Made by a program: the position numbers and the translations under genes. The notes beneath the pieces were generated by a model, which saw only the letters and a list, made by a program, of their open reading frames with translations, was not told where the DNA came from and searched no databases. A stretch of 64,000 nt of DNA from an uncultured Acidimicrobiia bacterium (lineage in GTDB: Bacteria; Actinomycetota; Acidimicrobiia; IMCC26256; PALSA-555), in assembly GCA_963809885.1 (NCBI GenBank), contig CAWELA010000004.1, positions 61,019 to 125,018 on the forward strand, given 5' to 3'. Shown piece after piece: positions 1 through 61,428 of the stretch. Every line of letters begins with the position of its first letter. Position 1 is the first letter of the stretch.

Positions 1-133
1 CCAAGTGCGCACCGTCGTCGAGCTCTCGCTCTCGTTCGATCACCGGGCCATGGATGGTGGCGACGCGGGTGGCTTCCTCCGGTTCGTGGCCGACTGCGTG
101 GAGCAGCCCTCAACGCTCCTGGCCTACACCTGA
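1..133 (+). CDS. 3' end of a 2-oxoacid dehydrogenase E2 (dihydrolipoamide acyltransferase) gene, 5'-truncated by the window edge
   Basis: Reading from position 2 gives ...LSLSFDHRAMDGGDAGGFLRFVADCVEQPSTLLAYT* with TGA at 131-133. DHR-x-x-DG is the catalytic motif of the E2/CAT-like acyltransferase fold. Absent from the ORF track because it is truncated. Confidence 0.8.
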   Translation, partial: QVRTVVELSLSFDHRAMDGGDAGGFLRFVADCVEQPSTLLAYT

Positions 134-3100
134 GCGCCGTCGGCGCCGTGGAGGCGGCGCCGCGCGGCCTCCGTCCGGAACCGCTCGACCCCCAGGAGCT
201 TGACGTTCTCGTAGCCGCGGACAAGGTCCGGAAGCGACGCGACCTCAACCGCGCCGTCGTAGTTCTGGAACGTGAGGGCGCTGAGCGTGGCCTCGACGAG
301 GTCGCGGTACTCCCGGATGAGTGAGCGCTCGGTGCGGCGGATCTTCGTGTACCCGAAGAGGTCCAGCGGGGTGCCACGCACGTGTCGCATCGCACGGAGC
401 GCGACGAAGGCGGGGCGGAACCAACGACCGAGCGCGAGCTTCTGCTTCATCCCGAGCGCTCGGAGCGCCGGCGGATGCAGCCGGTACCGGACCTTTCCGC
501 CATCGGGAAACTGCGCCCGCAACGCAGCCGTGAACTCGGGTCGCAGTGAGAGGCGAGCCACCTCGTACTCGTCCTTGTACGCCATGAGCTTGAACAGGTA
601 GCGGGCCACCGCGGTCGAGAGCTCGCAGCGCGCCGGGAGGACGGCGCGCTCCGCCGCGAGGACGCGCTCGACGAAGCCGAGGTACTCGCGAGCGAGGCGA
701 GGACCCTGGTACTCGACGAGCTCGGGCACGCGGACCTCGAGGAGCCGGCGGACGGGTGTCGGGAAGGTCGTCGGGGAGCGCCGCGAGGATCTCGGCGCCG
801 GACGCGCGCCCTGGTCGCGACGCTCGGCGCGGTGTCCCGATCTCGACCGGAGTCGGCGTCTCGGTGCCGAGACCCGCCGCGCCGAGAGTGCCCGCCGGGT
901 CGAGGACGAACCGCCGGCCCCAGCGGAACGCTTGCTGGTTCCGCTCCACCGCCACGCCGTTGAGCTCGAGGGCCCGCTCGATGGAGCCCGCGCTCAGGGG
1001 GAGTGCGCCCACTTGGAAGGCGATGCCGAGCAGCAGCGGGTTCGCCATCAGGTGATCAGCGAAGAGCCCCGTCCCGAGCGCCTCGGCGTCGGCGTGCGCG
1101 TCGATGGCCCCACCGTGGAAGGCCACGGTCTCGAGCAGCCCGTCGACCGCGGGGAAGCTCACGCTCGTGTCCCGCACCATCGCGCCGGTGGGCACCTTGC
1201 TCGTCGAGACGACCACACGCGTGCCGTTGCGCATCGCGCCGACGTTCCGCGGGTCGGCGGCGACGAGGAGATCGAATCCGAGGTAGGCGTCGGCCTCGCG
1301 GGAGCCGATCGCGTTGGACGAAGCGATCGGCTCGCGACGCGAGCTTCACATGGGAGACGACCGGGCCTCCCTTCTGGCTCAGTCCGGTCTGGTCGAGGCC
1401 GCTGACATGAAGGCCATCGAGGAGCGCGGCCGTCGCGAGCACCTGGCTGATCGTGACGACGCCCGTGCCGCCCACGCCGGTGAGGTAGATCGTGTAGCCA
1501 TCGCCGATCGCCGGGCGCACCGGGTCCTCGATCTCGGTCGCGGTGATGAGCGGGAGGTTGCGAGCTCCCGGACCCGACGATCCGACGACGGCCTGGGCTC
1601 GCCGAGCGTCCGCTCGACGACGTGATCGGCGTGTCTCGTGGACGGTCACGAACGATGGGCAGTCACCCTCGAGGCAGGTGAAGTCGAGGTTGCAGGACGA
1701 TTGATGGATGCGCGTCTTGCGTCCGAGCTCCGTCTCGATCGGCTGCACCGAGAGGCAGTTGCTCTTCGCGCCGCAGTCGCCGCAGCCCTCGCACACCCAT
1801 TCGTTGATGAAGACGCGCTGGGTGGGGGTCGGGGATCGACCGCGCTTGCGGAGGCGTCGGCGCTCCGCCGCGCATGCCTGGTCGTAGACCAGGACGGTGA
1901 CGCCCTCGACGTCGCGCAGTTCCCGCTGTGCTTCGTCGAGGCGATCACGCGGCCAGACGGTGACGTTCGGCGCCCATCGCGCCCGGGACGGGTACCCCTT
2001 CGGGTCCTCGGAGCAGACGATCGTCCGGCGCACACCCTCGGCTTCGAGCAGGCGCGTGAGGTCGGGAACCGACATGGCGCCGGGTGCATCCTGGCCGCCG
2101 GTCATCGCGACCGTGCCGTTGTAGAGGAGCTTGAACGTGATGTTCACTCCCGCGCTCACACACGCCCGGATGGCCATGCTCCCCGAGTGGAAGAACGTGC
2201 CGTCGCCCAGGTTCTGGAACATGTGCCGGCGATCGGTGAACGGTGCTCGTCCGATCCACTCGGCGCCCTCGCCGCCCATCTGGGTCATGGCGACCGCGCT
2301 GCGGCCCATCATCGCGGCCATGGTGTGACACCCGATCCCTCCACCGGCGACCGAACCGTCGGGCACGTTCGTCGAGCGATTGTGCGGGCATCCGCTGCAG
2401 AAATAGGGCGCGCGAGTGACGTTCGGGACGGGGGTCGGACGATCGCGGCGTCCGATGGGACGATCGCTGATCTCGGCCCCCGATCCGGGTCGAGCACCTT
2501 CGAAGGCGGGCCCGAGCCACGACGCGAGGGCGGGCAGGATCCGGTCCGGCGTCAGCTCGCCGTCCGCGGGGACGAGGGTGAGACCCTCGGCGTCCTGCTT
2601 GCCGAGCACGCGCGGGCGGGACGCGGCGTCGTAGAGGATGTCGCGCAGCTGGCTCTCCACGAAGGCGCGCTTCTCCTCGACCACGAGGATCTCGTGGAGA
2701 CCATCGGCGAAGCTACGCACGATGGTCGGCTCGACGGGCCAGATCATCCCGAGGTGCAGGATCCGGATCCCCGAGCGCTCGAGGGCTTCGTCGTCGAGCC
2801 CGGAGGCCGCCAAGGCATGACGGACGTCGTAGTAGGTCTTCCCGGCTGCGACGATGCCGCGCCGGGCGGACCGAGCCCGATCGCCCGCGATCTGATCGAT
2901 GCCGTTGACGCGTGCGTACGCGCGCGCGGCCTCGGTGCGCCCGGAGAGCAGCTCGCGTTCGTCGCCGAGGTTGCGGGGCGGCAGCGCGAGCCCGCCCTGG
3001 GCGTACGACCAGGGTCGGCCTTCGATCGCGACCTCGGGCAGCACCGGTGCGTGGCGCTCGGGGGAGACCGTGGCGGTCCCGAAGCCGTCGGCGACGTTGG

Positions 3101-3716
3101 TGACGATCTTCATCCCGATCCACAGCCCCGAGGCGCGCGACATCGCGATCGCGTGTTGCCCGAGGTCGAGGATCTCCTGCACGTTGCCGGGGAACAGCAC
3201 CGGGATGTTCGCGGCGGCGAGCGCGCCTTCGCTCGCGGACGGGATCGTCGACGATTTCGACGATGGGTCGTCGCCTGCGAGCACCACGACCCCGCCGCGT
3301 GGGTGGGTACCCATCAGGTTGCCGTGGCGGAACACGTCCCCGCAGCGATCCACACCCGGTGCCTTGCCGTACCAGATCGACACGATCCCGTCGTGCTCGG
3401 CCAGCTCACCCAGTGCGTCCTGCTGGGCTCCCCAGGCCGCCGTCGCCGCGAGCTCCTCGTTGACACCCGGCGTGAACCGCACGTCGTGCTCGTCCAGGAG
3501 TGGGGCCTCGCGTTGGAGGGCCAGGTCGTAGGTGCCGAGCGGTGATCCCTGGTACCCGGAGATGAAGGTCCCGGTGCGGTGGCCGGCGCGCCGATCGATT
3601 CGATGTCGATCGATCGGGAGGCGGACGAGCGCCTGGATCCCCGAGAGGAGGATCGTCCCGCGCTGGTTGCGGTAGCGATCGCCGAGCGTGAACTCGGTGG
3701 TGCGCGTCGTGGTCAC
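124..3716 (-). pseudogene. indolepyruvate/arylpyruvate:ferredoxin oxidoreductase family protein (fused IorA-IorB type), frame broken twice as assembled
   Basis: Three minus-strand ORF pieces read as one protein. ORF 1056..3716 is the N-terminal TPP/PFOR-like part (MTTTRTTEFTLGDRYRNQRGTILLSGIQALVRLP..., Cys cluster CEGCGDCGAKSNC, ...GLDQTGLSQKGGPVVSHVKLA). ORF 245..1234 is the middle (SNAIGSREADAYLGFDLLVAADPRNVGAMRNGTRVVVSTSKVPTGAMV...). ORF 124..729 is the C-terminus (RRLLEVRVPELVEYQGPRLAREYLGFVERV...). Frame changes lie at about 1340 and about 780. The total is about 1197 codons. Confidence 0.85.
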
Positions 3717-5283: not shown

Positions 5284-6142
5284 TCAGGTGAGGTCAGGCA
5301 GACCGATCGCGAAGACGACCGTCGGCTCGACCGCTTCGAGGATCTCATCGTCGCCGGGATCGAACTTGAACGCGCTGCGGCTCCCGTAGAGCCCGGCCGA
5401 GGCCCGGAGCGTCCCGTCGACCACGAAGTGGAGCTCGGGCGCGCGGAGACCGAGGCACGCGGTGGGTGGCTCCTGCGTCATAGCGCGTGAAGCCGATGCT
5501 CGTCCGGCGCTCGCTGAACGTCCCCAGGTGCCGGTGACTGATGCCGGGCTCCGGGTTCCCGGAGCCGTCTCGGGCGCTCACCCACGCGAACGAGTCCGGG
5601 CGCATGGTGATCGGGGTCTCGTAGCGCGGCGCCGGGTACTCGACCGGCCGACCGTTGATCTCCTCCCAGATGGCCTCGTAGCCGTCCTTGTTGCGCTGCT
5701 TGCCGTCGTCGTCGACGTAGCGCCAGGTCCCGTCGTCGAACGAACCGTGCGAGCTCTCGGCGAGCCGCTTGCTGCCCTCGGCGAGCCGGTCGTAGCTCAT
5801 GAAGCCGGACGTGCTGGCCTCTCCGTACTGGAGGGTCAGCACGAGCGAACCGTGCCCCTGTTGCGGACCGTAGAACGTTCCTTCCGGCGAGTACGTCACC
5901 GTCCCTTCCGGCATCGACACCGACGGTGACCACTCGTGCAGGCCTTCGAGCACGTAGTGGATCTGGGAGAAGTTGTGATGGTGGCGCGGTGTCGTGTACT
6001 CCTCGCCGAAGTGCACGATGCTCCACTCGAAGTTCCCGGCCGAGTCCGGATCACCTCGCAACAGCCGTTGGAACTTGATGCCGCTCCCGCGATGGTCGGA
6101 GAAGCAGTGCGGATCGGCGTCGATGGCTCGGATGGTCTGCAT
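5284..6142 (-). pseudogene. cupin-domain (bicupin-like) protein, paralog B, one frame break as assembled
   Basis: MQTIRAIDADPHCFSDHRGSGIKFQRLL...TPRHHHNFSQIHYVLEG...IGFTRYDAGATH is read in the frame of ORF 5345..7645. The protein then continues in ORF 5284..5481 (ACLGLRAPELHFVVDGTLRASAGLYGSRSAFKFDPGDDEILEAVEPTVVFAIGLPDLT*). The break is at about 5461, an extra C in CACCCACC. Confidence 0.7.
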
Positions 6143-6162
6143 GTCGGAGCGCTCCTGGGTCT

Positions 6163-7006
6163 TCAGTCGAAGCTCGGAAGCCCGATGACGTATGTCGTCG
6201 TCGCTTCCACTGCTTCGAGCATCTCGTCGTCGCCGGGATCGAACTCGAATGCGGTCCACCTCCCGTAGAGGCCGCTCCGACACCGCAGTGCCCCCTCGAG
6301 CACGAAGTGGAGCTCGGGCGCGCGCAGGTCGCGCACCGCGTGCGTCGCGCCCGCGTCGTACGCGCGTGAACCCGACGCTCGTGCGGAGCTCGCTGAACGT
6401 GCCGCAGTGCTTGTGCGCGATGCCGGCCTGGTCGGCTGCCGGTACCCACGCGAACGCGTCGGGAAGCATCGTGATCGGCGTCTCGTAGCGCGGCGCCGGG
6501 TATTCGACTGCTCGCCCGTTGATCTCCTGCCAGATGGCCTCGTAGCCGTCCTGGTTGCGCTGCTTGCCGTCCTCGTCGACGGAGCGATAGGTGCCCCCCT
6601 CGAACCGCCCGTTCGGGTTCTCCGCCAGGCGCTTGTTCCCCTCGGCGAGCCGGTCGTAGCTCATGAACCCCGCGCGGCTCGCCTCGCCGTACTGGAGCCC
6701 GAGCAACAACGCCCCGTGTCCGTGCTGGGGCCCGTAGAAGGTTCCCTCGGGGAAGTAGGTGACCGACCCGGTCGGGAGGAGCCGATCGGGCGCCCACTCG
6801 TGCGTGCCCTCGAGCACGTAGTGGATCTGGGAGAAGTTGTGGTGGTGGCGCGGGGTCTCGTAGTCCTCGCCGGCGCGCACGATGCTCCACTCGAAGTTGT
6901 TCGGCGCGGCGGGATCACCCTGGAGCAGTCGCTGGAACTTGATGTCCCCCTCGCGATGGCTCGCGAACTGGTACGCCTCGATCTCCGCGCTCTTCACTGC
7001 CTGCAT
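6163..7006 (-). pseudogene. cupin-domain (bicupin-like) protein, paralog A, one frame break as assembled
   Basis: MQAVKSAEIEAYQFASHREGDIKFQRLL...TPRHHHNFSQIHYVLEG...SVGFTR is followed in another frame by AYDAGATHAVRDLRAPELHFV...IGLPSFD* (stop 6163-6165). The break is at about 6362. It is clearly paralogous to the gene 20 nt downstream. Confidence 0.7.
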
Positions 7007-7081
7007 CGCTCGAACCTCTTCATCGCCCCGGAGTCGCCGTCGTCGGCACGGCACCGGATCCCGTTGGGCACCCGGGTGGCT

Positions 7082-7099
7082 TTGTAGTACAATATCGTC
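7082..7099 (+). promoter_or_regulatory. palindrome TTGTAgTACAA overlapping the shared 12-mer TACAATATCGTC; candidate operator/-10 upstream of the M24 peptidase gene
   Basis: TTGTA/TACAA arms occupy 7082..7092 and fit the GntR-type GT-N-AC operator shape. The 12-mer at 7088..7099 is identical to 4193..4204. It lies 69 nt upstream of GTG 7168. Confidence 0.35.
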
Positions 7100-7167
7100 C
7101 GACGTGTCGCCCGGCAAGGCAGCCGGGGGCAACACCGGGGCGGGGGCATCACCGGGGAGGGGGGTCC

Positions 7168-8376: not shown

Positions 8377-8400
8377 CCCAGACCTGAGAGGGGAGACCTG

Positions 8401-9348: not shown

Positions 9349-9351
9349 GCG

Positions 9352-10032: not shown

Positions 10033-10071
10033 CGTGGCCCACCAATGTCCGACGGCTCGATCGCTGGAACC

Positions 10072-11571: not shown

Positions 11572-11649
11572 CTTGATTGTTCGACAACATCATCCTACGC
11601 TTCCGCGCCGTGAGCGACCCTTCCACCGACCCGCTCGACGCGGTGATCG

Positions 11650-12585
11650 GTGACCCCGAGGTCGCCGCCGCGCTCGGCCGACCCCGACGCGGCGGCCCCG
11701 GCGGTCCTCGACCGGGTGCACCGCCTCGAACATCGGATCCCGGTCGGTGACGGGAACGTCGTGGCCGTCACCGAGAGCGTCTCGGCCCGGGCATTGCTGC
11801 GGGCGCCCCGGCGAGCGGTCGTGCACCTCTCGGGTCCGGTCACGGTCCGATCGAGCTGGAACATCCCCGTCGAGGGGTATGACGCCGGCGCGCAGGACGC
11901 CGCGCGGGGCCTCCACTCCTTCACGATCGACTACCTCGGATTCGGCGACAGCAGCCGACCTGTCGACGGCGCGCTCCTCACGCCACTCGACCAGGTCGAG
12001 CCGGTGCGCGTCGCGCTCGCGCATCTCCAGCAGCTGCGCGAGATCTCGGTCGGTCTCGACCTCGTCGTCGAGTCCGTCGGCGGCGGGATCGGCACCCAGC
12101 TCGCGGCCGACGACCGCCTCGTGCGGTCGGTCGTGCTCACGACCATCCTCTACACCGGGATGTCGGAGCTCGCGCGGTCGATCCTGCTCTCCGACGACTT
12201 CCGCTCCTACCTCGAGGGCTTCGCGGACGGCTATTTGGTCACCGACGGCCCGTACTACGGCCAGTTCACCGCACCGTCGCCGCCCGCGCTCGCCGAGTGG
12301 CTGGCGGCGACCCAGCCGGACCGCTATCCGACGGGCTTCTTCCTGCGCATGTACAACGGTCTCCCGTACTTCGACCCTTCAGTCGCGCGGGTCCGCGGGC
12401 TCGTCCTGCCGGGCCCGGGTGACTTCGTGCCGGTCGAAGGTGACGCCGAGGCGCTGGCGCGCGACTACGGGAAGAGCGGAGCCGACCTGATACTGCTCCA
12501 CGGCGGTGGCCACAACCCGCGTTTCGAGACGGGCGACGTCGTCGAGGACTACTGGCGCCACGTCTACGAGTTCATCGAGGCCTGA
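11650..12585 (+). CDS. alpha/beta-hydrolase-fold protein
   Basis: ORF-track 311 aa: ...FTIDYLGFGDSSRP..., nucleophile-elbow-like LVVESVGGGIG, C-terminal LLHGGGHNPRFE. The N-terminal limit is uncertain (GTG 11650 is only the longest option). Confidence 0.55.
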   Translation: MTPRSPPRSADPDAAAPAVLDRVHRLEHRIPVGDGNVVAVTESVSARALLRAPRRAVVHLSGPVTVRSSWNIPVEGYDAGAQDAARGLHSFTIDYLGFGDSSRPVDGALLTPLDQVEPVRVALAHLQQLREISVGLDLVVESVGGGIGTQLAADDRLVRSVVLTTILYTGMSELARSILLSDDFRSYLEGFADGYLVTDGPYYGQFTAPSPPALAEWLAATQPDRYPTGFFLRMYNGLPYFDPSVARVRGLVLPGPGDFVPVEGDAEALARDYGKSGADLILLHGGGHNPRFETGDVVEDYWRHVYEFIEA

Positions 12586-12614
12586 CCAGCAACGTCACCG
12601 AGGGGGAGAGATCG

Positions 12615-14229: not shown

Positions 14230-14704
14230 GTGACTGATCTCGAGTCCCTGGCCGCGCGTGTCCGTACCCTCGAGGACACGCTCGCGATCCAGGACATCAT
14301 GGCCGAAGTACGGCCGGATGCTCGACACCGGCGTCGTGGGACGAGTACCGCACGCTCTTCACCGACGACATCCACGCGGTCGCACGACGTGGTGATCGCG
14401 CCGATCGAGGGCCTCGACACGTTCATGGCCGTCGCCGAACAGCTGTCGACGCTCATGGAGGACGCCCAGCACTACGTCACGAACGTGGAGGTCGACCTGG
14501 ACGGGGACGAGGCGGTAGCGCGCGCGTTCGTGTTCGCGATGCACGATGTCGTTCTCGACGGCGAACGGCAGCTCGTCCCCGCCGGCGGCCGGTACGAGAA
14601 CAAGCTGCGGCGCACGTCCGACGGGTGGCGGATCTCGCAGCCTCACCGTGCACGAGACCTGGCTCGACGACCGTGTCGGCAAGATCTACGCGGACGCTGG
14701 TTGA
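14230..14704 (+). pseudogene. SnoaL-like/NTF2-fold protein, four frame breaks as assembled
   Basis: The protein is followed through successive frames: MTDLESLAARVRTLEDTLAIQDIMA | KYGRMLDTG | WDEYRTLFTDDIHAV | HDVVIAPIEGLDTFMAVAEQL...GRYENKLRRTSDGWRISQ | LTVHETWLDDRVGKIYADAG* (TGA 14702-14704). Breaks lie at about 14305, 14335, 14382 and 14641, each a +1 step. Confidence 0.6.
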
Positions 14705-14707: not shown

Positions 14708-15197
14708 CTAGGACTCGCCCGGGAACATCCGGGCGGCGGCGCCCCCGGGATCGTGGGTGAACAGCACGTTGGGCTGGACGCGGCAGAGCTTCCAGCCCTC
14801 GGGTGTGCGTCGGAGCAGGTTGTCGAAGCGGGCCGCACCGATCAAGAGCTGATGCTCGACCGGCTGGTCCGGCCAGAAGTGCATCGCCTGCGCGTGGAAG
14901 CGCGCGCGGGCCCGATCGCCCTCGACCTCGACCACGAAGTTGGCGTACATGTGATGGCACAGACCGCCACGTGCCGCGAGACCCGCGCGCGAACGCGATC
15001 CATTCGTCGCGAGGTGCAAAGCACCCGAGCAGCCCGTAGTCGACGACGCAGTCATCCGTCATCGTCGTGGCGTAGTGGTCGAAGGACTCGTCCGAGAGCT
15101 CCCGTGCCGTGCGGTCGACTGCGGCCGCATAGCGCGTGCAGGCGTCGATCACCGCCTGGCGGTCGAGGAGCTCCTCGAGAGTGGTGGCATCGTTCAT
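14708..15197 (-). pseudogene. SnoaL-like/NTF2-fold protein, one frame break as assembled
   Basis: ORF 14643..15197 supplies the N-terminus (MNDATTLEELLDRQAVIDACTRYAAAVD...DEWIAFARG). The protein continues in ORF 14708..15055 (LAARGGLCHHMYANFVVEVEGDRARARFHAQAMHFW...GWKLCRVQPNVLFTHDPGGAAARMFPGES*). The break is at about 14981. Confidence 0.6.
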
Positions 15198-16128
15198 GGG
15201 TTCGGTTCTCCCGGTGTGGTTGCCAGTCTCTCTTGAGGTGCTTCGGTGTCGGCGACGGCGAGCGGTGAGATCACTCGCAGCAGCGCGTCGAGGGTGCGGA
15301 CGGTCGGAACGGCGATGTCGTGGGCTGCGGCCTTGCGCACGACCACGCCGGTGATGCCGTCGGTCTCGAACGGGCGCCCTGCTTCCAGGTCCTGCAGCGT
15401 CGAAGTGGTCTTGTCAGGCGGCATGCCGAGGATCATCTGCACCATCGCTTCGACATCGTGGTCGTCGAGCACGACGCCATCAGCACGCGCAACCGCGGCC
15501 GTCTCCGTCACGGCGGCGCGCGCGACCGCGTGGATCTCGGGGACCGCGAGCAGTGCGCCGAACCTCGACCCGGTGATCGCGGTGAGGCTGTTGCCGGCAA
15601 CGTTCCCGAGGAGCTTGCGCCAAGAAGCGACCCGGATGTCCGGATCGGTCTCGGTCGGGATGCCGTGTCGCCCGAGCCAGCCCGCGAGGTCGGCGTCCTC
15701 GACCACCAGGTGCGCGCCGGCGAGCTCGGTCCGGACGTGCGTCGGACCGAGGCGCTCGGCGCCGCAGTAGACGACTGCCGCGTCGACTGCTGCGTGGGTC
15801 CGGCGCAGGATGTCGGTGTTCTCCACGCCGTTCTGCGCGCTCAGCAGGCGCGCCGGCGGGAGCGCGGCACCTACCGCCGCCGTGTGCTGGGACTTCACCG
15901 CGACGACGATCAGGTCCCAGGCCCCGGCGGGGACGCGGTCACGCTGACGGGGCCCGACCAGTCGCCGTCGGGACCCTCCAACGTGAACGGCTCACCCGCG
16001 CCGAGCCGCTCGGTCGCAGCTCCCCGGATCCACCCGGTGACATCCGCTCCGTGCTGGGTCAGGCGGGCGAGCAGCCACCCGCCGATCGCTCCGACGCCCG
16101 CGACCAGCACCCGAGCGTCGTCGTGCAC
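15194..16128 (-). pseudogene. 2-dehydropantoate 2-reductase (ketopantoate reductase, PanE/ApbA) family protein, one frame break as assembled
   Basis: ORF 15910..16128 holds the N-terminal Rossmann motif (MHDDARVLVAGVGAIGGWLLARL...). The protein continues as ...PAGAWDLIVVAVKSQHTAAV...ASWRKLLGNVAGNSLTAI... in ORF 15194..15898. The break is at about 15930 and behaves as -1. An ATGA overlap joins it to the downstream SnoaL gene. Confidence 0.75.
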
Positions 16129-16138: not shown

Positions 16139-17068
16139 TCAGGCCCCGAGCGCCTGGCGCAGTGCCGCCCCGAGCTCGTCGAGCGCTCGCTCGCCGTCGT
16201 CGATCTGGCCCTTGAAGTTCACCCATCCGTGGATCATGCCGGGATAGTCCGTGTGCTCGACGTCGATGCCCTCGGCCCGGAGGCGACGGACGAGCTCGAA
16301 GCCCTGGTCCCGGACGGGATCGTGCTCCGCGGTCAGGACGATCGCCGGTGGCAACCCGCCGAGGTCGTCGACGTGGTTCAGTTGGGCGAGTGGCAGCGCG
16401 GCGTCGGCGGGATCGGAGAAGTACTGGCCCTCGATCCAGCGGCACAGCTCGAGGGTCAAGAAGCACCCCTCGGCGTTCTCGACGAACGAGCCACGGTCGT
16501 AGTCGAAGTCGAGCCCGCCGGGGTTGATGAGGTACTGGAAGGCGATCGGTGGTCCTCCTCGGTCGCGCGCCATCAGAGCGACGGTCGACGCGAACGTCGC
16601 GCCTCCACTGTCGCCGCCCACCGCCAGTCGGGCGGAGTCGAGAGCGAGCTCGTCGGCGTGCTCGGAGATCCAGGTGGTGGCGGCGTACGAGTCCTCGATG
16701 CCGGCCGGGAACCTGTGCTCGGGCGCGAGGCGATAGTCGACGGCGATCACGGCGCAGCCGCTCCGCCGGGCGAGCGCGCGGCACAGCCGGTCGTGGCTGG
16801 TCAGGCTGCCGGCCGTGAACCCGCCGCCGTGGAGGTAGACCGCAACCGGGAGCACGGGGTCGGTCGTCGGCCGGTACATCCGGATCGGGATCGGCCCGTT
16901 CGGTCCCGGGATCTCGCGATCGACGACCGCGGCGAGGTTCTCGAGCTCGCCGGCGAGCACGTCACCGGCGTCGAGGCCGGCGCGTGCGACCTCGATGGGG
17001 GCTTCGTGCGGGGCAGGGCCATTGCTCAGGAGATCGACGACGGCCTGGGCCTGGGGGTGCAGCGTCAT
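16139..17068 (-). CDS. alpha/beta hydrolase, HSL-type esterase, copy 2
   Basis: ATG 17068 lies inside ORF 16139..17323: MTLHPQAQAVVDLL...VYLHGGGFTAGS...DYRLAPEHRFP...LAVGGDSGGATFA...GMIHGW. 309 aa. An ATGA overlap joins it to the upstream esterase. Confidence 0.85.
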   Translation of the reverse strand: MTLHPQAQAVVDLLSNGPAPHEAPIEVARAGLDAGDVLAGELENLAAVVDREIPGPNGPIPIRMYRPTTDPVLPVAVYLHGGGFTAGSLTSHDRLCRALARRSGCAVIAVDYRLAPEHRFPAGIEDSYAATTWISEHADELALDSARLAVGGDSGGATFASTVALMARDRGGPPIAFQYLINPGGLDFDYDRGSFVENAEGCFLTLELCRWIEGQYFSDPADAALPLAQLNHVDDLGGLPPAIVLTAEHDPVRDQGFELVRRLRAEGIDVEHTDYPGMIHGWVNFKGQIDDGERALDELGAALRQALGA

Positions 17069-18025: not shown

Positions 18026-18026
18026 C

Positions 18027-33097: not shown

Positions 33098-33138
33098 TCG
33101 AGGTCGCCGACACCCAGGAGCAGCCGTGGACCGTTATC

Positions 33139-39565: not shown

Positions 39566-39591
39566 GTTCCGCCCAACCCTGGGGAGATGAC

Positions 39592-43663: not shown

Positions 43664-44900
43664 ATGAGCGCACGAGCGGCGCCGAGCAACGACACCAGGG
43701 TCGTGGTCGTGGGCGCCGGACCCGTCGGCCTCACCGCCGCGCTCGCGCTGCGGTGCCGAAGGACTCCCGGTCACCGTGCTGGAAGCCGGCACGGCCGGGC
43801 GCACCCGCCCGGGGAGCCGGGCGATCTACTACCACCGTCAGACGCTCGAGCACTGGAACGCCATCGCCGACGGCCTGGGCTGGGAGGTCGCGCGGCGGGG
43901 GATGACCTGGGCGACCAAGCAGACCCACTGGCGCGGCGAGCTCGTCTACGACCGCACGTACCCGCCGGGCGACCCGGGCGTCCTCCCGCCGTTCGCAAGC
44001 CTCGGCTCAGGTGGACCTCGAGGGGTTGCTCCTCGACGCCTGCGGGGACGCGGGCGTCGAGCTCGCCTGGGACCACGAGATCGACGCTCGTCGAGTCGGG
44101 CCCGGACGGGCGTGGAGCTGCGCACCACCACGGGCGCGACCATCGCGGCAGACCACGTCGTCGCCGCCGATGGCGCGCGGTCGACGATTCGCCAGGCGCT
44201 CGGCATCGCGCTCAGCGGTGATCGCTCGGAGAACCACTTCGTGATCGTGGACGTCGCGGAGGATCCGGACCGCCCGCTCCGGCCGGCTCGCGTCTTCCAC
44301 TACCAGCACCCGGCGGTCAACGGACGCAACGTCCTGCTCGTGCCCTTCACCGGCGGCTGGCGCGTCGATCTCATGTGTCGCGTCGGCGACGACCTGCGTG
44401 CGTTCGAAGGTGAGGAGGGTGCGCGGCGTTGGGTCGGCGAGGTCATGCCCGAGCGCTACGTCGATCGGATCCAATGGGCGTCGACGTACCAGTTCCTCCA
44501 GGTGGTCGCGGATCGATTCACCGACGAGCACCGCCGGGTGCTGCTGGTGGGTGAGGCGGCGCATCTCTTCGCGCCGTTCGGTGCGCGCGGTCTGAACTCG
44601 GGTGTGCCCGATGTGCGGGCGGCGGCTCGGGCGATCGCGACCGCGCGGCGTGCGACGGACACGCGGAGCGCGGCCGAGGAGATCGACGCCTTCGCGGAGT
44701 CCCGCCGCGGTGCCGCGGAGTACAACCGCGCGGCGGCCGGGCTCGCTCTCCAGCACATGCGTGCGCACGGACCCCTCACGCGTCTCCGCCAGGCCCGGGC
44801 GGCGCGTCGAGCGAGACGCGGGATCCGAGCCGGCGCGTGGCTCGACAGCGCCCCGTACGGCCCGCGCGCCCGCGATCGCGACGCCGACGCGGTGTACTGA
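43664..44900 (+). pseudogene. FAD-dependent aromatic-ring monooxygenase (FAD_binding_3 type; candidate gentisate-forming hydroxylase), four frame breaks as assembled
   Basis: The protein is followed through successive frames: MSARAAPSNDTRVVVVGAGPVGLTAALALR | AEGLPVTVLEAGTAGRTRPGSRAIYYHRQTLEHW...PPFASL | AQVDLEGLLLDACGDAGVELAWDHEID | LVESGPDG | VELRTTTGATIAADHVVAADGARSTIRQ...LLVGEAAHLFAPFGARGLNSGVPD...*. Breaks lie at about 43754, 44004, 44086 and 44109, each a +1 step. Confidence 0.75.
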
Positions 44901-44914: not shown

Positions 44915-45662
44915 TCAAAGCCAGCGCGGCAGGGTCGGCACCGGACCGGTCGTGCAGGTGAGGGTCGCGCCACGGCTGCGACCGAGGACCCAACCGAGCA
45001 GCTCGTGGGCCGGACCGCGCACGATCGCCCGATGCTGGTTCGGTGCGCCGATGGACCAGAGCCGATCAGTGTCGCTGGCGTTGAGCTCCATCTCGTCGCA
45101 GTCGTCGCGTGCTCCGAAGGTCTGGGTGACCTCGTCGAGCAGGGCCTCGACGAACGCCGGGGGGAGGTCGGCGAATGACGTCCCGGCGTCGAGATCGACC
45201 GCGTGCACCCAGACCTCCCGACAACGCATCCAGGGAACCTCGGCCGCGCTGATGACCCGCCCGGTCTGGGTGCGGACCTCCGACGACCACCGGTCGAGCG
45301 GCAGGGAGGTGACGGCCGATGAGAATCGCCGCTCGGCGTCGTCGAGGTCGGCTCGCAGCGCATCGGCCGACCGCCGCGCGCCGGCGTCGATGTCGGCGGC
45401 GCGCTGTTCGGAGCTCTCGTACATCGGGGTCTCGACACCGGTACGTGCCCAGGTGATCAGGTTGTCGAGGGCGTCGGCGTTGCGTGCGACGTGGGCGACG
45501 ACGTGCGCCCGAGTCCAGGACGCGAGGGCCGACGGCTCGCGGGAGCTCGTCATCGCGAAGGCGACGGACCTCGGCATCGAATCGACGGGTTCCCTCGTCC
45601 ATCCACTGCCGTCGGAGGTCGAGGAGGGCCGGCTCGGGAGCCTGGGTCTCCGGCGAGTCCAC
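44915..45662 (-). pseudogene. mycothiol-dependent maleylpyruvate isomerase family (DinB-like N-domain) protein, one frame break as assembled
   Basis: GTG 45662: VDSPETQAPEPALLDLRRQWMDEGTRRFDAEVRRLRDDEL. The protein continues in ORF 44915..45697: REPSALASWTRAHVVAHVARNADALDNLITWARTGVETPMYESSEQRAADIDAGA...WMRCREVWVHAVDL.... The break is at about 45543, an extra C in CTCCC. Confidence 0.8.
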
Positions 45663-45785
45663 GATGACGACGACGATAGGCAGCGTCGGGGCACCACAGC
45701 AACAGCACGTCATACGTCGCGGTCGCGGCGCGAGGACGGTTCGGGCCCGGCCACGTCGGTTGGGGTGTGAGCAGCGAGCTGACGC

Positions 45786-46841: not shown

Positions 46842-48892
46842 GTGCCCGCTCGCGCACCGCTCGACCGCATGTTCAGCCCACGGTCCATCGCGGTCGTCGG
46901 GGCTTCCGACGACGAGGCGAAGGTCGGGAGCGCGCTCATGAGATCGCTCGCCGGGTTCTCCGGTTCGATCCATCCGGTCAATCGTCGGTCCCCCAAGATC
47001 ATGGACCGAGTGGCGTCGCCCACGGTTTCGGCGGTCCCGGAGGTGATCGATCTCGCGCTTCTCGCCGTCCCTCCCGAGGCGGTGCCTGACGTGCTCGACG
47101 ATTGTGGTGCTGCCGCGGTTCCTGCCGCAGTCGTCTATGCGGGTGGATTCGCTGAGACCGGCGATGTCGCGAGGTGCGACCTCCAGGCGCGCACGCTCGA
47201 GGTCGCACGCGCGCACGGCATCCGCGTGCTGGGGCCCAACACCTCCGGGTTCATCAACTGCGTCGACGCGGTCAACGCGACGTTTCTCCCCGAGGTCGGC
47301 GCGCTCACTCCGGGACGACTGTCGATCGTCGCGCAGAGCGGCGGAGTGAACTTCGTCCTGTCGTACCTGGCGGCGAACGAGGCTCTCGGGTTGCGGTTGG
47401 GAGTCGGCCTCGGCAACGCGATCGACGTGGGCTTCACCGACATCCTCGAGTACCTGGCGCTCGACGAGCACACCGGCGTCATCGCGGTCCACATCGAGGG
47501 CTGCACCGACGGACGAGCCGTCATCGACGCGGTGCGCCGGGCCGCAGCCCTGAAGCCGGTCGTCGCGATGACGATCGGACGCGCCGACGTCGGCAAGTTC
47601 GGGGCCTCGCACACGGGTGCGATGATCGGCAGCCACGCCTTGACGTGTGCGGCGCTGGTGCAGGCGGGCGCGGTGGTGGTCGAGGGGCCGTCCGAGCTCA
47701 TCGATGCGGCCCGTGCCCTCGCCGCCGTGCCGACCTTGTCGTCGGCACACCCCGGTGTCGGGCTGGTGACCGGGCAGGCAGGCCCGGGTCTGATCGTGGC
47801 CGACATGCTGCGGCACCGGGGCGTGTCGCTGCCGCAGCTCACCACGACCACCCGGGAGCGTCTTGGGCAGCTGCTCGAGCCGATCACGTTCCAGGAGAAC
47901 CCCGTCGATACGGCGCGGCCGGGCCAGTCGTTCTCGGATGTTCTGGCGGCGGTGGGATCCGACCCGGCCATCGACGTGGTCGCGTGCTTCGCACTCGAGG
48001 AGCCGCATGCGGTCGACCCGGTCGCGGCCGTACGAGACCTGGCGTCGTCCGGGATCCCTGTGCTCGTGGGAGCGACCGGACCGGCCGATGTGGGAGCCGT
48101 GCGCCGACAACAGCTCAGCGATCTGGGTGTCGCGCTCTTCGACGCGCCCGATCGCCTGGCGCACGGTGTCCGCGCCGTCGTGGACAGAGCGCGTGCGTGG
48201 CACCGATGTGCGAGTGCGCTCGAGTGGGATCCTCCGAGTCAGGAGATGCCGATCGTGGCGCCACTCGACGAGGACGGCGCGAAGCGCCTCCTCGCGTCGC
48301 TGGGTGTGCGGACGCCCCGGCGCCGCGTGTGCGCCGGGCGCGAGGAGTGTCTTGGCTGCGATGGCGGATCTGGGTGCCCCGATCGTGGCGAAGGTGCTCG
48401 ATCCTGCGATCACCCACAAGACCGACGTCGGAGGCGTGCAGGTCGGGTTGTTCGACGCGGGGATGCTCGTCGCCGCGCTCGACGGGTTCGTCACGGCAGG
48501 GCTCGACACCGGATCACGTGCTGATCGAGGAGCAGGTCGGTCCGGGTCCCGAGCTCATCGTGGGCGCGATCCGCGACCCGGTCTTCGGTCCGACGGTGAT
48601 GCTCGGACTGGGTGGCACGCTGGCCGAGCTCGCACCACCGGTCGCGATGCGCCTCGCGCCGCTGAGCATCGAGGACCTGGCTGAGATGGTCCGGGCACTT
48701 CCGGATCAGGTTCGGCAGGGTCGTCACGGTCCACCGTTGGACGATGCTTCCCTGGTGCACGTGATCGCGGCAGTGGGCGCCCTGGTCGTGGAGCACGACA
48801 CGATCGAGAGCGTGGAGATCAACCCGTTGCGCGTGACCGCCGACGGGCTGGTCGCCCTCGACGCGGTGGTCAGTGTCCGCGGCCTTCCCTGA
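46842..48892 (+). pseudogene. ADP-forming acyl-CoA synthetase (ACD/NDP-forming, CoA-binding + succinyl-CoA-synthetase-like + ATP-grasp domains), two frame breaks as assembled
   Basis: ORF 46842..48524 reads ...PRSIAVVGASDDEAKVGSAL...VLGPNTSGFIN...IVAQSGGV...FGASHTGAM.... It continues in ORF 47863..48684 (VLAAMADLGAPIVAKVLDPAITHKTDVGGVQVGL...) and then in ORF 47174..48892 (...HVLIEEQVGPGPELIVGAIRDPVFGPTVMLGLGGTLAEL...EINPLRVTADGLVALDAVVSVRGLP*). Breaks lie at about 48347 and 48500. Confidence 0.8.
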
Positions 48893-48970: not shown

Positions 48971-50139
48971 CTACCTGACGTACGCGGCGGCCTGTCGCTC
49001 GGCGATGCTCACGAGGTCGCCCAGTGCCAGGTTCACGTCCGAGAGGTGCAGACCCCATGCCTCGTTCGGCAGCGCCTGCACCGTCGGCTGGGCAACCGTC
49101 CCTTGCTCGGTCGCGACGTTCAGCCACTGCGCACCTTGCTGATCGTCGCACTCGGCTGAGTACAGACCGGGGAACGTCACCCAGGGCGTCTGCTGCGGGA
49201 ATGGTGGCCACCAGTCCAGGGCCGTCTCGGGCGGCGACGAGGCCGTCGGGAAGTAGCCCGTGAGTGCCTTGTGGTGCCCGCTGAGCGCAGCCGGGTCGAC
49301 GCAAGCAACGTCGAGCGACACGTTCGTCGGCATCGTGGCGATCGTCGGCGTGCCTTGTCCGACCCGTCCGAACTTGCTGTCGGGCGGTGGCACTCCTTCG
49401 TACGACGAATATGCGATCACGCACCTGGTCTCGTTGCGCTTCGCGGACGTCGGTACGTGCTCGAAGCTCCCGCCGGCGCGGCGGCCGGACTGCACCACGA
49501 CGTTCGCGCCGACGATGAATGCCGAGACCAAGCGGCGACGGAGCTGCCTGGTCGTGGTCGATCTCGTCCTGGATGAGCTTGGTGAGCAGCACCGCGCCTT
49601 GCGAATGGCCGATGAGCACGAATCCCCGGCCGTGGTTGTACTGCTCCAGGTAGTCGTGCCAGGCAGGGAGCAGGCCCTCGTAGGCGGTCATCACTTGCTG
49701 CTCCCGCTCCGGCGATGACGTCGTGCCGAGATCGCCGAGCGTCGCCTGGGGATACATCGGCGCGTACACCTTGCACACCTCGGAGAAGCGCGACGCCTGC
49801 GCGATCGCGGCGCCGATCTCCTGCGGATCGATCTCGAGATCGGCGTTCGGCGTCGGCTGTTCGCTGACCGTCGGGTACACGTAGAAGCAGTCGACCGGCG
49901 TCTTCTTCGCAGCCCCGGTTGACGAGACCTTCGTGGATCCGTCGGCCGACACGATGGTTGCTTCGCGCGGAGCGAGGCATGGATTGGGTTCCGCTCCGGG
50001 TCGGCACAGCCAGACCGTCTGGCCCGGGGACCCCGCCGCGCCATCGTCGACCGGTTGCGCCGTCGCGTTCGGTGCGACTCCGATCGACAGCGATCGCGAG
50101 GGACAGCGCTGTCACTGCCCGCAGGGTGAAACCCGACAT
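48971..50139 (-). pseudogene. secreted DUF3089-family lipase-like alpha/beta hydrolase, two frame breaks as assembled
   Basis: The protein is followed through successive frames: signal peptide MSGFTLRAVTALSLAIA | SIGVAPNATAQPVDDG...TPVDCFYVYPTVSEQ...CKVYAPMYPQATL...GFVLIGHSQGAVLLTKLIQDEIDHDQ | LRRRLVSAFIVGANVVV...WGLHLSDVNLALGDLVSIAERQAAAYVR*. Breaks lie at about 50088 and 49547. Confidence 0.65.
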
Positions 50140-55176: not shown

Positions 55177-57616
55177 CTAGAGGTAGCCGTCGTCGAGCAG
55201 GTTCTTCGTCGCCCACCACCCGGGGACCGCCGGGATGAAGTTCGCGACGAGCTGGTCCGTCAGGACGGCCGCGACGGCGACGTCGGTCGGGACGCCGGCG
55301 GCGGTCAGCGCACCCGAGAGACCGACGGCCGACACCGCGGTGTTGCCGCCGGGGATCGGCACGAGCGACGCGATCGTCGACACGAAGATGTTGATCGCGA
55401 GCAGCGTCCAGAAGTTGATGGACCCCCCGAAGGCTTCGATGCACGCGAGGAGCACGAACGCGTACATCGAGCGCGTTGATCGCGTTGCCGATCAGGAGCA
55501 GGAACAGCTGGCGCGGGGATCGGATCGCGGTCCAGATCGTCGTCCACGCGCTCTTCAACGGGCCGACGACCATGGTGCGGATCTTCGGCACCAGCAGGAT
55601 CACCGCGACCACGAGGACGATCACGAGCGTGGCGATGAGGACGATCGACTCGATGCTGCTCACCGGGATCTTGCCGGTCTTGATCGAGGTGGGCGACAGC
55701 GCGATCGCAATGATGAACATCACGATCTGCACGAAGATGTTGCCGGCGTTCATGAGGATGCCACCGGACGCGACCGCGGACGCGAGGTCGGCACCCTGCT
55801 TCTGCAGGTAGCGGATCTGGGCCGCGAGCCCACCGATCGCCGGAACCGCGAGGTTCGAGAACGACATGGAGAGCTGCAGCTCCGACGTCCGCCAGAGGGG
55901 GAGGCGCACCGGCACCGTCCCCATGAGCGCGATGGCCGTGGCGATGTTCGTGGCGAACGACACCAGCATGGCGACGATCAGCCAACCGAGGTCCGCGCTC
56001 GTGACGGTGTCCCACAGCTCCTGCGGATCCCCGACCTGGCTGAGCAGCGCACTGATGGCGATCAGGGTGCCGACCGCCATCATCAGGTTCGTGCCGCTGA
56101 CCCGGTACAGCTGCTGGAGCTGCGGGGTCTCGGTGCCGGTCGCCGCCGCCGTCGCGTCGCGGAGGTCCGCGAGCGCCTGGTTCGCTTCCTTGCGGTCGTG
56201 GCGCTTCGCCGCGTGGAGGTCGGAGCTCAGTGCTGCCGGCTGCAGGTAGCCGATCGCGTGGACGACCGCGTCCGTGCCGACGCCCGCGATCGCCGCCTTG
56301 ATGGCCCTGTCGGCACCCACGATGGTCGCCGTGCTCGCGAGCAGCTCGGCGACGTCGTTGCTCAATCGACCGGCCGGTGCCGCGCCCGCGGCAGTGTCGA
56401 AGTCGACGATCGCCGGTCCCTTGCTCGTCAGCAGGATGTGATGCGCGTTGAGCCGACCGTGCACGACGTGGGCCGTCTGCATCGCCTTGACCTGGGTCCA
56501 GAGCTGCTTGAGCAGCGTGGCGGTGACTGCCTTCGGTTCGGCGTCGGCGAGCAGGACACCGTCGAGAGGTCGTTCGACGAGGAGCGCGGCGCCCGGGCCC
56601 GCGGTGCCCGCGACGACGACGTCGGGCACGCGCACACCGGCGCGCTCCGCGAGCAGCGTCGTGTAGGCCTGATGCTCGACATCCTCGAGCCGCGTGAGGT
56701 GCAGCGCTTCTCCCGCGTCCTTGTACGCGACGTACCGCCAGGTCTTCGCCATCAGCTGCGTGTCGGCCTCGTCACGACCCAGGACGGAGACCTTGAGCGG
56801 CCCCTTGGCGTCCGCCGCGGTCATGAGCGTGCCGAACGCGGGCTGGGGGTCGGCGAGCTGCACGTCGGTCGCGTCTACCCCGAGCTCGTGGAGCGAGGCG
56901 GCGACCTGGTTGCGCGTCGGACGCCCGCCGGGCGAGCCGAACGCCAGGTGCACGGCCGCGGCGATACCCCAGCCGAGGAAGAGCGCCGCGAGGATGCCGT
57001 CGGGGAAGCCGGTCCCGAGGTACATCGCGGAGAGTGCGAGCGTGAGGAGCAGGAGGCGGCCGAGGCGGCGCATCGGGCGCGCGAGGTACGGCGACGCGGT
57101 GGAGATGACCGCCGCGATGACCGCGAGGCGCACGAGTGGGAAGCTCGCGGTGCTGTCGCCGAACCGGGTCACGACGTCGAGGCTCTTCGCGAGGCTTGCC
57201 TCGCCGACGACGAGCTCGCCGATGAGCCGACCGATGAACCACGAGAGCGCGCCGGCGATCGCGAGGTCGCGTGCGAGACGCCAACGGCGCGCCACCAGCG
57301 CAGCGATGACGATGACCGCGACGGCCCACAGTGCACCGAGCCGATAGAGCAGGGTGAAGAGCGAGTTCAGGTCGTTCGGCAGGGTGTTGAAGAAGGTGAA
57401 GAGATTCTGCTCGGCGGTGCTGAGGTCGCCTTCGTGGGCGATGAGCAGGGCGAGGGCGACGACCGCGATCGTGAGCCGGACCCAGTCGACCGTCCGTCGG
57501 CGGTAGGGCTCCTCGGACGCCGGGCCGAACGTGCCGTGGCGCCAGTGCTCGATGCGCCCGTGGAGGTCCGTGCGGCGGTGCTCGTGCTGCGTCGTCTCCT
57601 CGGTGCTCACCCGCAT
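55177..57616 (-). pseudogene. large multi-domain membrane protein: N-terminal TM region + kinase-like (probably inactive) domain + C-terminal LPG-synthase-TM/flippase-like domain; one frame break as assembled
   Basis: ATG 57616 (or GTG 57610) lies inside ORF 55166..57832. The central domain reads ...VLGRDEADTQLMAKTWRYVAYKD...HVVHGRLNAHHILL...IVDFDTAA. The C-terminal TM bundle reads ...LLLIGNAINAL and then continues in ORF 55177..55467 (MYAFVLLACIEAFGGSINFWTLLAINIFVSTIASLVPIPGGNTAVSAVGLSG...*). The break is at about 55470. Confidence 0.55.
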
Positions 57617-57704
57617 CCCTCGCCGTCGCTGCTGGGCGACACCGTACGCGACTTCGCCTCGCACGTGTCCCACGGCGAGCGGGGGAGGTAGTGCCCGACG
57701 GCCG

Positions 57705-58451
57705 CTACGCGTCGGCGAGGTCGCCGCGGGCGACGACCGGACCGGTCGGCTTCGCGCTCCCGCCGACGGGCTCGTCGGTGACGGCCATGCCCGACATCGG
57801 ACCATCGGCGTGGAAGACGCGGGCGCGGGCACCGGGGCCGAACGTGCCGAGCGGGACGGAACCGTCGTCGGAGAGGGCCCACAGCTCGTAGGTGTGGCGG
57901 TCCGAGAGCGTCGGCAGGTCGGCGGTCAGGATGCCGGTCCCACCGGGCAGCACGACGGCGGTCGCTGCGACCCTGCCATCGTCGTCGCGCAGCGGCAGCT
58001 TGGTGGCGCCGGGCGTGGTGCGGGCCGCGCGCGCCGCCGCCGCCAGCGCAGTGTCGCTCACGTTGGTGTCGTCGACAACCGCACTGCGCACCCCGCCGAC
58101 GAGTACCACGACCGCGAGCACTGCCGCGGCGATGGCCGATACGCGTGCCGTCGTGCGGGTGATCGACCGGCGCGTCGAGAGCTCGACCATGTTGCTCGAC
58201 ACGGTCTCGACTGCGGTCAGATCCTCGACGTCGAGCCGGGAGGCGATCCTGTCCCACGCCTCCTCCGGCGGCCGCTCGCTCGACTGGGCGAGCCACGACG
58301 CGCCGAGCTGCAGCGCGTGCAGCTCGGCGCGCGCGTCGGCGTCGGTGAGTACGTGCGCCTCGACCTGGCTGCGCTCGTCGGCGTCGAGCGCGTCGAGTGC
58401 GTAGGCGCCGAGGAGCTCGCGCACCTCTTCGGGGATCAGCTCATGCGCCAT
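57705..58451 (-). CDS. rskA: anti-sigma-K factor RskA-like membrane protein
   Basis: ORF-track 248 aa. The N-terminus is ...ELLGAYALDALDADERSQVEAHV..., followed by a single TM helix (VSAIAAAVLAVVVLVGGV). The C-terminal RskA-like domain reads ...TYELWALSDDGSVPLGTF...MAVTDEPVGGSAKPTGPVVARGDL. Confidence 0.75.
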   Translation of the reverse strand: MAHELIPEEVRELLGAYALDALDADERSQVEAHVLTDADARAELHALQLGASWLAQSSERPPEEAWDRIASRLDVEDLTAVETVSSNMVELSTRRSITRTTARVSAIAAAVLAVVVLVGGVRSAVVDDTNVSDTALAAAARAARTTPGATKLPLRDDDGRVAATAVVLPGGTGILTADLPTLSDRHTYELWALSDDGSVPLGTFGPGARARVFHADGPMSGMAVTDEPVGGSAKPTGPVVARGDLADA

Positions 58452-60077: not shown

Positions 60078-60128
60078 GGTGATGCGAACACCTCGGGTCG
60101 CCGTGGCACTCCCGCCTAGCCTTGGCCC

Positions 60129-61428
60129 GTGCCGGAGCGCCTGAACCCGACCGAAGCCGCCGCGAGGGTCGGCGCCCGGGACGTGCTGGCGATCCCGCTC
60201 GGGCCGGGCCAGCCGAGCAAGTTCCTGCAGGCGCTGGGAGAGCGGGACGACTTCGAGGACCTGGTGGTCCACGGCGCGCTGCTCGTCGACCTCTACGCGG
60301 TGTTCACCCGGAAGGGCGTCCGGTTGCGCAGCGGGTTCTTCGGTCCCGCGGAACGGTTCCTGCGCGACGCCGGTCACGACGTGCAGTTCGTCCCCGCCGA
60401 CTTCCGGCGCTTCTCGCTGGTCGCGCGGCGCGTCCGGCCGCGGGTCGTGGCGACTGCGGCGAGCACGCCCGATGCCGACGGGTACCTCAGCCTCTCGCTC
60501 CACGCGGGTGCGACCGTCGACCTGATCCGCGAGGTGGGCCACGATCCCGACCGTGTGCTGATCGTGGAGGCGAACGCCCGCTTGCCGCGGACGATGGGCA
60601 TCCCGCCCGAGTACCCGAACGCGATCCACGTCGACGAGATCGACGTGCTGGTCGAGGTCGAGTCCGATCCGTTCGTGATCCCCGATGGCGACCCGACGGA
60701 TGCAGAGCGGGCGATCGCCGAACATGCGATCCAGTACGTGCACGACGGCTGCACGATCCAGACCGGCATCGGCGGGATCCCGAGCACGATCGCCAGGCTG
60801 CTGTCCGAAGGTGGCGGCGGCGACTACGGCGTCCATTCGGAGATGTTCACGACCGGGCTCATGCACCTGCACGAAGCGGGCAAGGTCACGAACCGCAAGG
60901 GCAGTCGGTTCGACGGATTCTCGGTCACCACGTTCGCGGCAGGGACGGCTGAGCTCTACGAGTGGCTCGACGGCAACGCTGACGTCCGGTTCCTCCCCGT
61001 CGACGCGGTGAACACACCCATGCTCATCGCGGAGAACCGCGACATGGTGACGATCAACGGCGCGCTGCTCGTCGACCTCGAGGGACAGGTCGCGGCCGAC
61101 TCGCTGGGCTCGCGGCAGTACTCGGGGATCGGCGGCCACGAGGACTTCGTGTCGGTCTCGGGGTTCCAGCTCGAGGACCGCGCGCTCATCTGCGTCCCGT
61201 CCGCGTCGAACGTGCAGGGACAAGCTGGTGCCGCGCATCGTCGACCGGTTCCCCGCCGGGACCGCAGTCACCACGCCGCGGCATCACGCCGACGTCGTGA
61301 TCACCGAGTTCGGCTCGGTCGAGCTCGCAGGGATGACGGTGCGCGAGCGGGCCGCCGCGCTTGTCGAGATCGCGCACCCGCAGTTCCGAGACGCCCTGCG
61401 CGAGTCCGCCGACCGCGACTTCACCTGA
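60129..61428 (+). pseudogene. acetyl-CoA hydrolase/transferase family protein (4-hydroxybutyrate CoA-transferase-like), one frame break as assembled
   Basis: ORF 60129..62453 carries the N-terminal 360 aa (...GCTIQTGIGGIPSTIA...HSEMFTTG...GSRQYSGIGGHEDF...ICVPSASNVQG). The protein continues in ORF 61228..61428 (KLVPRIVDRFPAGTAVTTPRHHADVVITEFGSVELAGMTVRERAAALVEIAHPQFRDAL...*). The break is at about 61219. Confidence 0.8.

Follow-up and report, generated by a model that had tools for sequence, protein, structure and literature searches.

Indel (insertion or deletion) errors left in long-read-only assemblies reportedly truncate or split predicted proteins, a problem described by Watson and Warr in Nat Biotechnol in 2019. 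Split reading frames also have biological causes: Mycobacterium leprae carries a pseudogene-rich genome shaped by reductive evolution, while programmed +1 or -1 frameshifting is known from prfB, dnaX and the IS3 transposases. Here we analyse frame breaks in 26 of the ~60 genes of a 64,000-nucleotide stretch (the window: positions 61,019 to 125,018 of contig CAWELA010000004.1, assembly GCA_963809885.1) from an uncultured Acidimicrobiia bacterium. The window has a G+C content of 70% and is densely coding on both strands. Its pattern of breaks is the known long-read indel problem in an atypical form, and not a real biological feature. We consider it highly probable that the breaks are residual consensus errors of a long-read-only metagenome assembly, and that the organism itself has intact genes, which are not decaying.

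As in assemblies with long-read indel errors, single-base indels split the genes, the pieces match one family and no other decay accompanies them; moreover, such breaks are seen across one long-read catalogue and not in the short-read contigs of relatives. Unlike the classic description of these errors (in homopolymers, mostly deletions, at low GC), those of the window lie in DNA of 70% GC, are >90% insertions and are ~78% non-homopolymeric. Genomes of the M. leprae type likewise have a large fraction of frameshifted genes, but the window lacks their nonsense mutations, multi-base deletions, relaxed selection and sharing with relatives, and shows an insertion bias. Programmed frameshifting also places one protein in two frames; in contrast to it, the window has no conserved shift site.

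Frame switches were sought by a seven-state Viterbi segmentation using G+C by codon position alone, which returned same-strand switches at nearly all the positions listed in an initial annotation of this DNA. Gene boundaries do not account for most of these switches, as the outgoing frame runs on without a stop nearby. When the pieces were joined at the junctions, the restored proteins were free of internal stops, and in most of them one Pfam match bridges the junction with near full-length coverage of its hidden Markov model (HMM). Exact positions were taken from nucleotide alignments to relatives; in protein searches, an orthologue from a relative was spread over two to five frames of the window. 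The breaks therefore exist as frame interruptions in the window.

The initial annotation had listed 39 breaks in 24 genes. External support, either alignment to relatives or one Pfam domain across the junction, was obtained for 36 of them; two, in bicupin-like paralogues, are based on the alignment of the paralogues to each other, and one, at 50088, is only plausible. Two further +1 breaks, at 11676 and 33138, bring the number of affected genes to 26. The dominance of insertions holds, with the proposed 34 steps of +1 against five of -1 corrected to a net phase tally of 37 against 4 (P=1e-7). A -1 step assigned to a permease gene at 36445 is in fact a +1 at 36470 in the alignment to the nearest relative, and a supposed base loss in the fumarylpyruvate/FAA hydrolase (FAH) gene is an insertion of two bases at 42334-42335.

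When the PaaX-like regulator of the window was compared with species-representative genomes, only metagenome-assembled genomes (MAGs) of Acidimicrobiia/Acidimicrobiales and other Actinomycetota matched. The top match (91%) lies on CAVRGH010000010.1 of MAG MFD05442.bin.1.1, hereafter the sister, which belongs to the Microflora Danica (MFD) long-read catalogue. Two adjacent loci on this sister contig, L001 and L019, align collinearly with window 15138-48878 (nucleotide identity 89-94%). Window 6933-17148 is covered by short-read metagenome contigs from JGI (L015; 94% amino-acid identity on the ligase) and Logan (L016-L018; 85%); another Logan contig, L020, holds an orthologue of indolepyruvate:ferredoxin oxidoreductase (IOR) as a single open reading frame (ORF) of 79% identity. 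A search of a plasmid collection for a close annotated relative gave only distant matches to aldehyde dehydrogenase (ALDH).

The indels of the window are missing from every relative that covers the site. At amino-acid identities of 79-94%, the relatives have single-frame orthologues where the window is split. Contigs L015 and L016 (85-94% amino-acid identity) carry the second of two SnoaL_4 genes (SnoaL-2) and the ketopantoate-reductase-like gene (KPR) in a single frame, and the sister MAG, over window 15138-48878, has none of the window's indels.

The sister comes from a nanopore-only catalogue, made with Guppy sup basecalls, Flye 2.9.2 --meta --nano-hq and one round of Medaka 1.8.0, and checked by its authors for nanopore-associated errors (PMC12313526). 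At other sites, the sister has private frameshifts of its own, eight of +1 and two of -1, which hit KPR, esterase, thiolase, binding-protein, crotonase-3, DUF1028 and acyl-CoA synthetase genes and have left its public gene calls split or over-extended. A reference-free frame-switch detector was run alike on all fetched loci and on the window. Ten MFD nanopore loci yielded 98 candidates in 184 kb of coding sequence (5.3 per 10 kb), 74 of +1 and 24 of -1 (~3:1). The other loci, namely JGI and Logan contigs (mostly short-read), three non-MFD MAGs and one complete chromosome, yielded only 2 in 80 kb (0.25 per 10 kb), a ~20-fold difference (P=3e-16). The window's own rate by this detector, 4.1 per 10 kb, falls within the MFD range. 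Hence, the damage tracks technology, not lineage.

Between MFD MAGs, the candidates vary from 1 to 37 per 20 kb. MFD02840.bin.2.106, MFD05747.bin.2.16 and MFD09368.bin.2.94 (L012, L013 and L014), which are GTDB species-representative MAGs, have 10-37 candidates per 20 kb, mostly of +1, a density far above that of the window. A homology check confirms events in the two worst loci, L013 and L014.

The breaks are private and without evolutionary signature, and such damage is common in the nanopore-only MAGs of relatives and absent from the relatives' short-read contigs. In the explanation that we favour, the window would have been assembled solely from noisy long reads, by a workflow resembling Flye on nanopore data with a single Medaka round, leaving ~40 consensus errors, nearly all of them spurious extra bases, that shift the frames of functional genes. 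The errors would accumulate where the consensus is locally weakest. The strong clustering noted in the initial annotation stands (16 events within the 6.6 kb of 39.0-45.6 kb, P=1e-4); such a cluster may mark low read depth or an unpolished chunk, at the scale of one read (~6-7 kb). Three +1 and two +2 differences from L015 also lie within 110 nt between bicupin B and an M24 peptidase gene (7014-7120), and surplus bases therefore occur outside coding sequence as well.

Several observations weigh against this explanation. The platform of the window itself, very probably long-read-only, is inferred from the nearest relative and the shared error pattern. Exact-protein look-ups with four intact genes found no second assembly of the same species. 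A long-read artefact would be expected to concentrate in homopolymers, but these indels do not: just 5 of the 23 exactly placed insertions extend one, and the placement of junctions in short G/C runs by the initial annotation was mostly wrong. The ratio of nonsynonymous to synonymous substitution (dN/dS) against the sister is slightly higher in broken genes than in intact ones (see below). Furthermore, the context GCTC[N]GCCG is common to three insertions (11672-11680, 39976-39984 and 40993-41001, with inserted G, A and A), each after a CTC codon for Leu. The motif is not systematically affected, because 56 uninterrupted instances of GCTCGCCG are present in the window; nevertheless, a three-fold coincidence is unlikely to have arisen by chance. 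Together with the near-coincident breaks of the two bicupins, it suggests some dependence of the error process on sequence context. Among the three deletions, two shorten GG to G. A GATC (Dam) context was tried and rejected: GATC lies within 8 nt of 5 of 18 sites, which is not above chance by a rough estimate (one GATC per 98 nt).

The non-homopolymeric character of the insertions would fit a particular form of artefact, in which a polisher keeps both alleles of a single-nucleotide polymorphism from co-assembled haplotypes and so leaves a spurious base. In 18 of 23 cases the inserted base is unlike both neighbours, and in 12 of 23 it is a synonymous alternative to a neighbouring wobble base (as in CTC[A]GCC and GTC[G]CAG). 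The first SnoaL_4 gene (SnoaL-1), with four breaks in 340 nt the most densely damaged of all, shares just ~40% identity with its positional counterpart in L015 and L016, likewise a SnoaL_4 gene, whereas identity reaches 84-94% in the genes on either side; this suggests local replacement or hypervariability of the gene. However, by a rough estimate chance alone would give 8-10 such cases, from which 12 of 23 does not clearly stand out, and the density of breaks shows no link with divergence from the sister (Spearman 0.19, P=0.27). We regard such a strain chimera as a possible but rather unlikely source of the errors.

True, very recent pseudogenes, in a lineage shedding an island of genes for aromatic-acid and fatty-acid catabolism, would explain why the breaks cluster in functionally linked genes, those of the block from the short-chain dehydrogenase (SDR) through DUF1028, MetE-like, FAH, gentisate 1,2-dioxygenase-like (GDO) and monooxygenase to the isomerase at 39-45.5 kb. 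The same reading could draw on the gene-wise dN/dS, which ranges from 0.07 to 0.36 in broken genes (pooled 0.19) and is 0.11 in intact neighbours. Nevertheless, had ~17 indels built up in 6.6 kb through real decay, many substitutions and some stops would be expected beside them. The restored genes contain no premature stops and no deletions of more than one base, in keeping with the initial annotation, and the pseudogene pattern of frameshifts with nonsense mutations, deletions and a deletion bias is not seen. Bacterial mutation is reportedly deletion-biased (Mira, Ochman and Moran are said to have shown this in 2001), and because of this bias an insertion excess of 37 to 4 speaks against a biological origin.

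Selection in the affected lineage does not appear relaxed either. Some heavily damaged genes are among the most constrained, such as FAH (three breaks, dN/dS 0.075), SDR (0.07) and GDO (0.13). When amino-acid replacements in broken genes were polarised with an outgroup, 5 were window-specific and 15 sister-specific; the corresponding counts are 0 and 5 for FAH, and 1 and 5 for GDO, and none of the broken genes had accelerated in the window lineage. Nor does nucleotide identity to the sister drop in the clusters of breaks. Moreover, unrelated genes over the whole 64 kb are also broken, and a like pattern occurs in unrelated nanopore MAGs and in no short-read contig. We therefore hold gene decay to be very improbable; the privacy of the breaks, the selection tests and the comparison across technologies support the under-polished single-molecule assembly that the initial annotation had preferred to it.

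The extra bases could also be real without any decay, if exposure to an intercalating mutagen, or a fault in a polymerase or in repair, had caused a very recent burst of +1 mutations at non-repetitive sites in the sampled population or clone. Such a burst would have to be too recent for substitutions or stops to have followed and to have been concentrated in the 6.6-kb block with the gentisate-pathway genes; we give this scenario only a slim chance. Programmed or tolerated recoding (ribosomal frameshifting or transcriptional slippage) would agree with purifying selection on both halves of every gene and with the breaks of two paralogues lying 21 nt apart, but is excluded for practical purposes because every site is single-frame in the orthologues of relatives and slippery motifs are lacking, most sites having neither a slippery run nor a homopolymer in contexts that are heterogeneous, with as many as four shifts in one small gene and the two bicupin sites at non-homologous positions.

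With residual consensus errors as the preferred explanation, the genes are to be read as intact in biological terms. Annotation, pathway, pseudogene-count and coding-density statistics taken from this contig would be wrong for ~40% of its genes. Its relatives' nanopore-only MAGs, in which as many as 37 candidate frame switches were counted in 20 kb, call for like caution. The error profile (>90% insertions, mostly non-homopolymeric, at 70% GC and in clusters of read-length scale) may be useful to those who polish assemblies. The individual breaks are collected in the table.

Table. Interrupted genes of the window and their frame breaks. Coordinates are window positions, except in the last row, which gives positions within the sister loci. 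The letter a marks an extra base (+1), two extra bases (+2) or a missing base (-1) placed in nucleotide alignments to relatives.
Gene	Coordinates	Strand	Breaks	Evidence
Indolepyruvate:ferredoxin oxidoreductase (IOR), ~1196 aa restored	124..3716	-	+1 at ~1331-1337 and ~755-775	POR domain crosses first junction, DUF6537 begins directly past second; each of six full-length single-ORF orthologues (P0241-P0247) is spread over frames -3, -1, -2
Bicupin-like paralogue A	5284..6165	-	+1 at ~5462, CCACC[C]ACC	Viterbi switch, paralogue alignment
Bicupin-like paralogue B	6163..6995	-	+1 at ~6361, CGCGC[G]TAC	Viterbi switch, paralogue alignment
Alpha/beta-hydrolase	11577..12585	+	+1 at 11676a, GCTC[G]GCCG, near N-terminus	Extra base not in short-read contigs L015, L016, L017; tblastn frame switch; beyond the initial list
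SnoaL_4 protein 1 (SnoaL-1)	14230..14703	+	+1 at ~14305, 14336, 14382 and 14638-14641	Three-frame reading; SnoaL_4 HMM 1-124 of 126, E=5e-29; Pfam crosses 3 of 4 junctions, C-terminus in next frame
SnoaL_4 protein 2 (SnoaL-2)	14708..15197	-	+1 at 14981-14985 (~14983a)	Indel against L015, L016; L016 orthologue maps to frame -3 then -1; Pfam crosses junction
Ketopantoate-reductase-like (KPR, ApbA)	15194..16128	-	-1 at 15922a	Base missing against L016, L019; tblastn frame switch; ApbA crosses junction
Abhydrolase_3 esterase	17065..18100	-	+1 at 17917a, CAG[C]GTT	Alignment to sister L019; Viterbi switch
Enoyl-CoA hydratase 1 (crotonase)	23511..24291	+	+1 at 24046a	Sister alignment; ECH_1 crosses junction
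Enoyl-CoA hydratase 2	24288..25113	+	+1 at 25085a, AGC[A]CGA, 10 codons ahead of stop	ECH_1 extends to HMM 250 of 251 in restored protein only
Acyl-CoA synthetase (AMP-binding)	25134..26742	-	+1 at 26335a	Pfam crosses junction; intact 535-aa sister orthologue (P0121) falls into two window frames
Aldehyde dehydrogenase (ALDH)	31680..33097	+	-1 at 32366a, GG to G	Aldedh HMM 1-460 of 461 across junction
MaoC-like dehydratase	33127..33591	+	+1 at 33138a, codon 5	Sister L019 alignment; sister protein reads VDRYLLFRTF; beyond the initial list
Enoyl-CoA hydratase 3	33613..34393	+	+1 at 33703a	ECH_1 crosses junction
Fused LivH/LivM permease + LivG ATPase	34491..37344	+	+1 (probable) at 36470a, permease-ATPase joint	Sister has one 950-aa ORF with BPD_transp_2 and ABC_tran
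Short-chain dehydrogenase (SDR)	38731..39565	+	+1 at 39049a	adh_short_C2 match broken into two stretches at junction
DUF1028 protein	39590..40518	+	+1 at 39914a, 39980a, 40206a	DUF1028 HMM 1-193 of 193 across two junctions
MetE-like (Meth_synt_2)	40530..41622	+	+1 at 40997a, 41353a	Pfam crosses both junctions
Fumarylpyruvate/FAA hydrolase (FAH)	41640..42470	-	+1 at 41849a, 42088a; +2 at 42334-42335a	Pfam domain crosses 2 of 3 junctions
Gentisate 1,2-dioxygenase-like (GDO)	42471..43571	-	-1 at 42555a, GG to G; +1 at 42797a	Sister ORF intact
FAD monooxygenase	43664..44900	+	+1 at 43755a, 44007a, 44085-44094a (net), 44107a	FAD_binding_3 crosses all four junctions
Mycothiol-dependent maleylpyruvate isomerase	44915..45690	-	+1 at 45540a	MDMPI_N crosses junction
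ADP-forming acyl-CoA synthetase ('ACD' in the initial annotation)	46842..48892	+	+1 at 48351a, 48509a	CoA_binding, Succ_CoA_lig, ATP-grasp_5; ATP-grasp_5 crosses both junctions
DUF3089 secreted protein	48971..50139	-	+1 at ~49547 and probably ~50088	DUF3089 across ~49547
Kinase-like + LPG_synthase_TM membrane protein ('flippase-like' in the initial annotation)	55177..57832	-	+1 at ~55467	Viterbi switch; LPG_synthase_TM HMM 5-302 of 302 across junction
Acetyl-CoA hydrolase/transferase	60129..61428	+	+1 at ~61218	AcetylCoA_hyd_C HMM 1-154 of 154 across junction; Viterbi switch
Private frameshifts of the sister	L001 and L019		L001 4216, 12138, 12509, 13593; L019 20900, 19057, 18876, 14007, 4355, 1713	

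The bicupin breaks rest on alignment of the paralogues because no usable Pfam family was found for these proteins in the Pfam scans. When the two genes are aligned, each has a surplus of 1 nt, the sequence YDAGATH in the upstream frame of A corresponding to DAGATH in the downstream frame of B, and the breaks are 21 nt apart in homologous coordinates. The bicupins are tandem paralogues (5284-6995), 84% identical over their aligned 3' ends.

The break at 36470 is probable and not certain, because the joint between permease and ATPase falls between domains; the permease frame of the window is stop-free for 700 nt. LivH, LivM and LivG appear to be fused in the sister (~950 aa, L019 1-1111), and likewise in the window after restoration. 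At the plausible break near 50088 of the DUF3089 gene, the mature protein follows in the frame next to that of the ATG and signal peptide, with a stop upstream in the mature frame; a scan of JGI metagenomes for DUF3089 orthologues found no relatives. A possible -1 at 19610, in an AMP-binding gene, was rejected, since the 47-residue N-terminal extension of the sister looks non-coding.

Both added breaks, at 11676 and 33138, are N-terminal, and an ORF caller would hide them by choosing a downstream start. The region 38731-45690 combines genes of the gentisate pathway (FAD monooxygenase, GDO-like, FAA-family hydrolase and mycothiol-type maleylpyruvate isomerase) with SDR, DUF1028 and MetE-like genes. 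This block is flanked by TetR and PaaX-like regulators, and a second PaaX-like gene lies at 27888-28769.

Synteny with the sister stops at window 48878. Within the collinear part, the sister has two insertions of ~1.1-1.2 kb that are not in the window: one between window 46738 and 46753, with an extra minus-strand gene (L001 10844-12343), and one between 30099 and 30155, with a split beta-lactamase-family gene (L019 5484-6681). Short direct repeats differ in length between the window and its relatives at 7146, 11535-11571, 27860-27877 and 38097-38115; their units are 14-20 nt (for example GAGTCCACCGGGTGGGGA and TCATCGACCGGCACATCGA), and they are located between genes or at gene ends.

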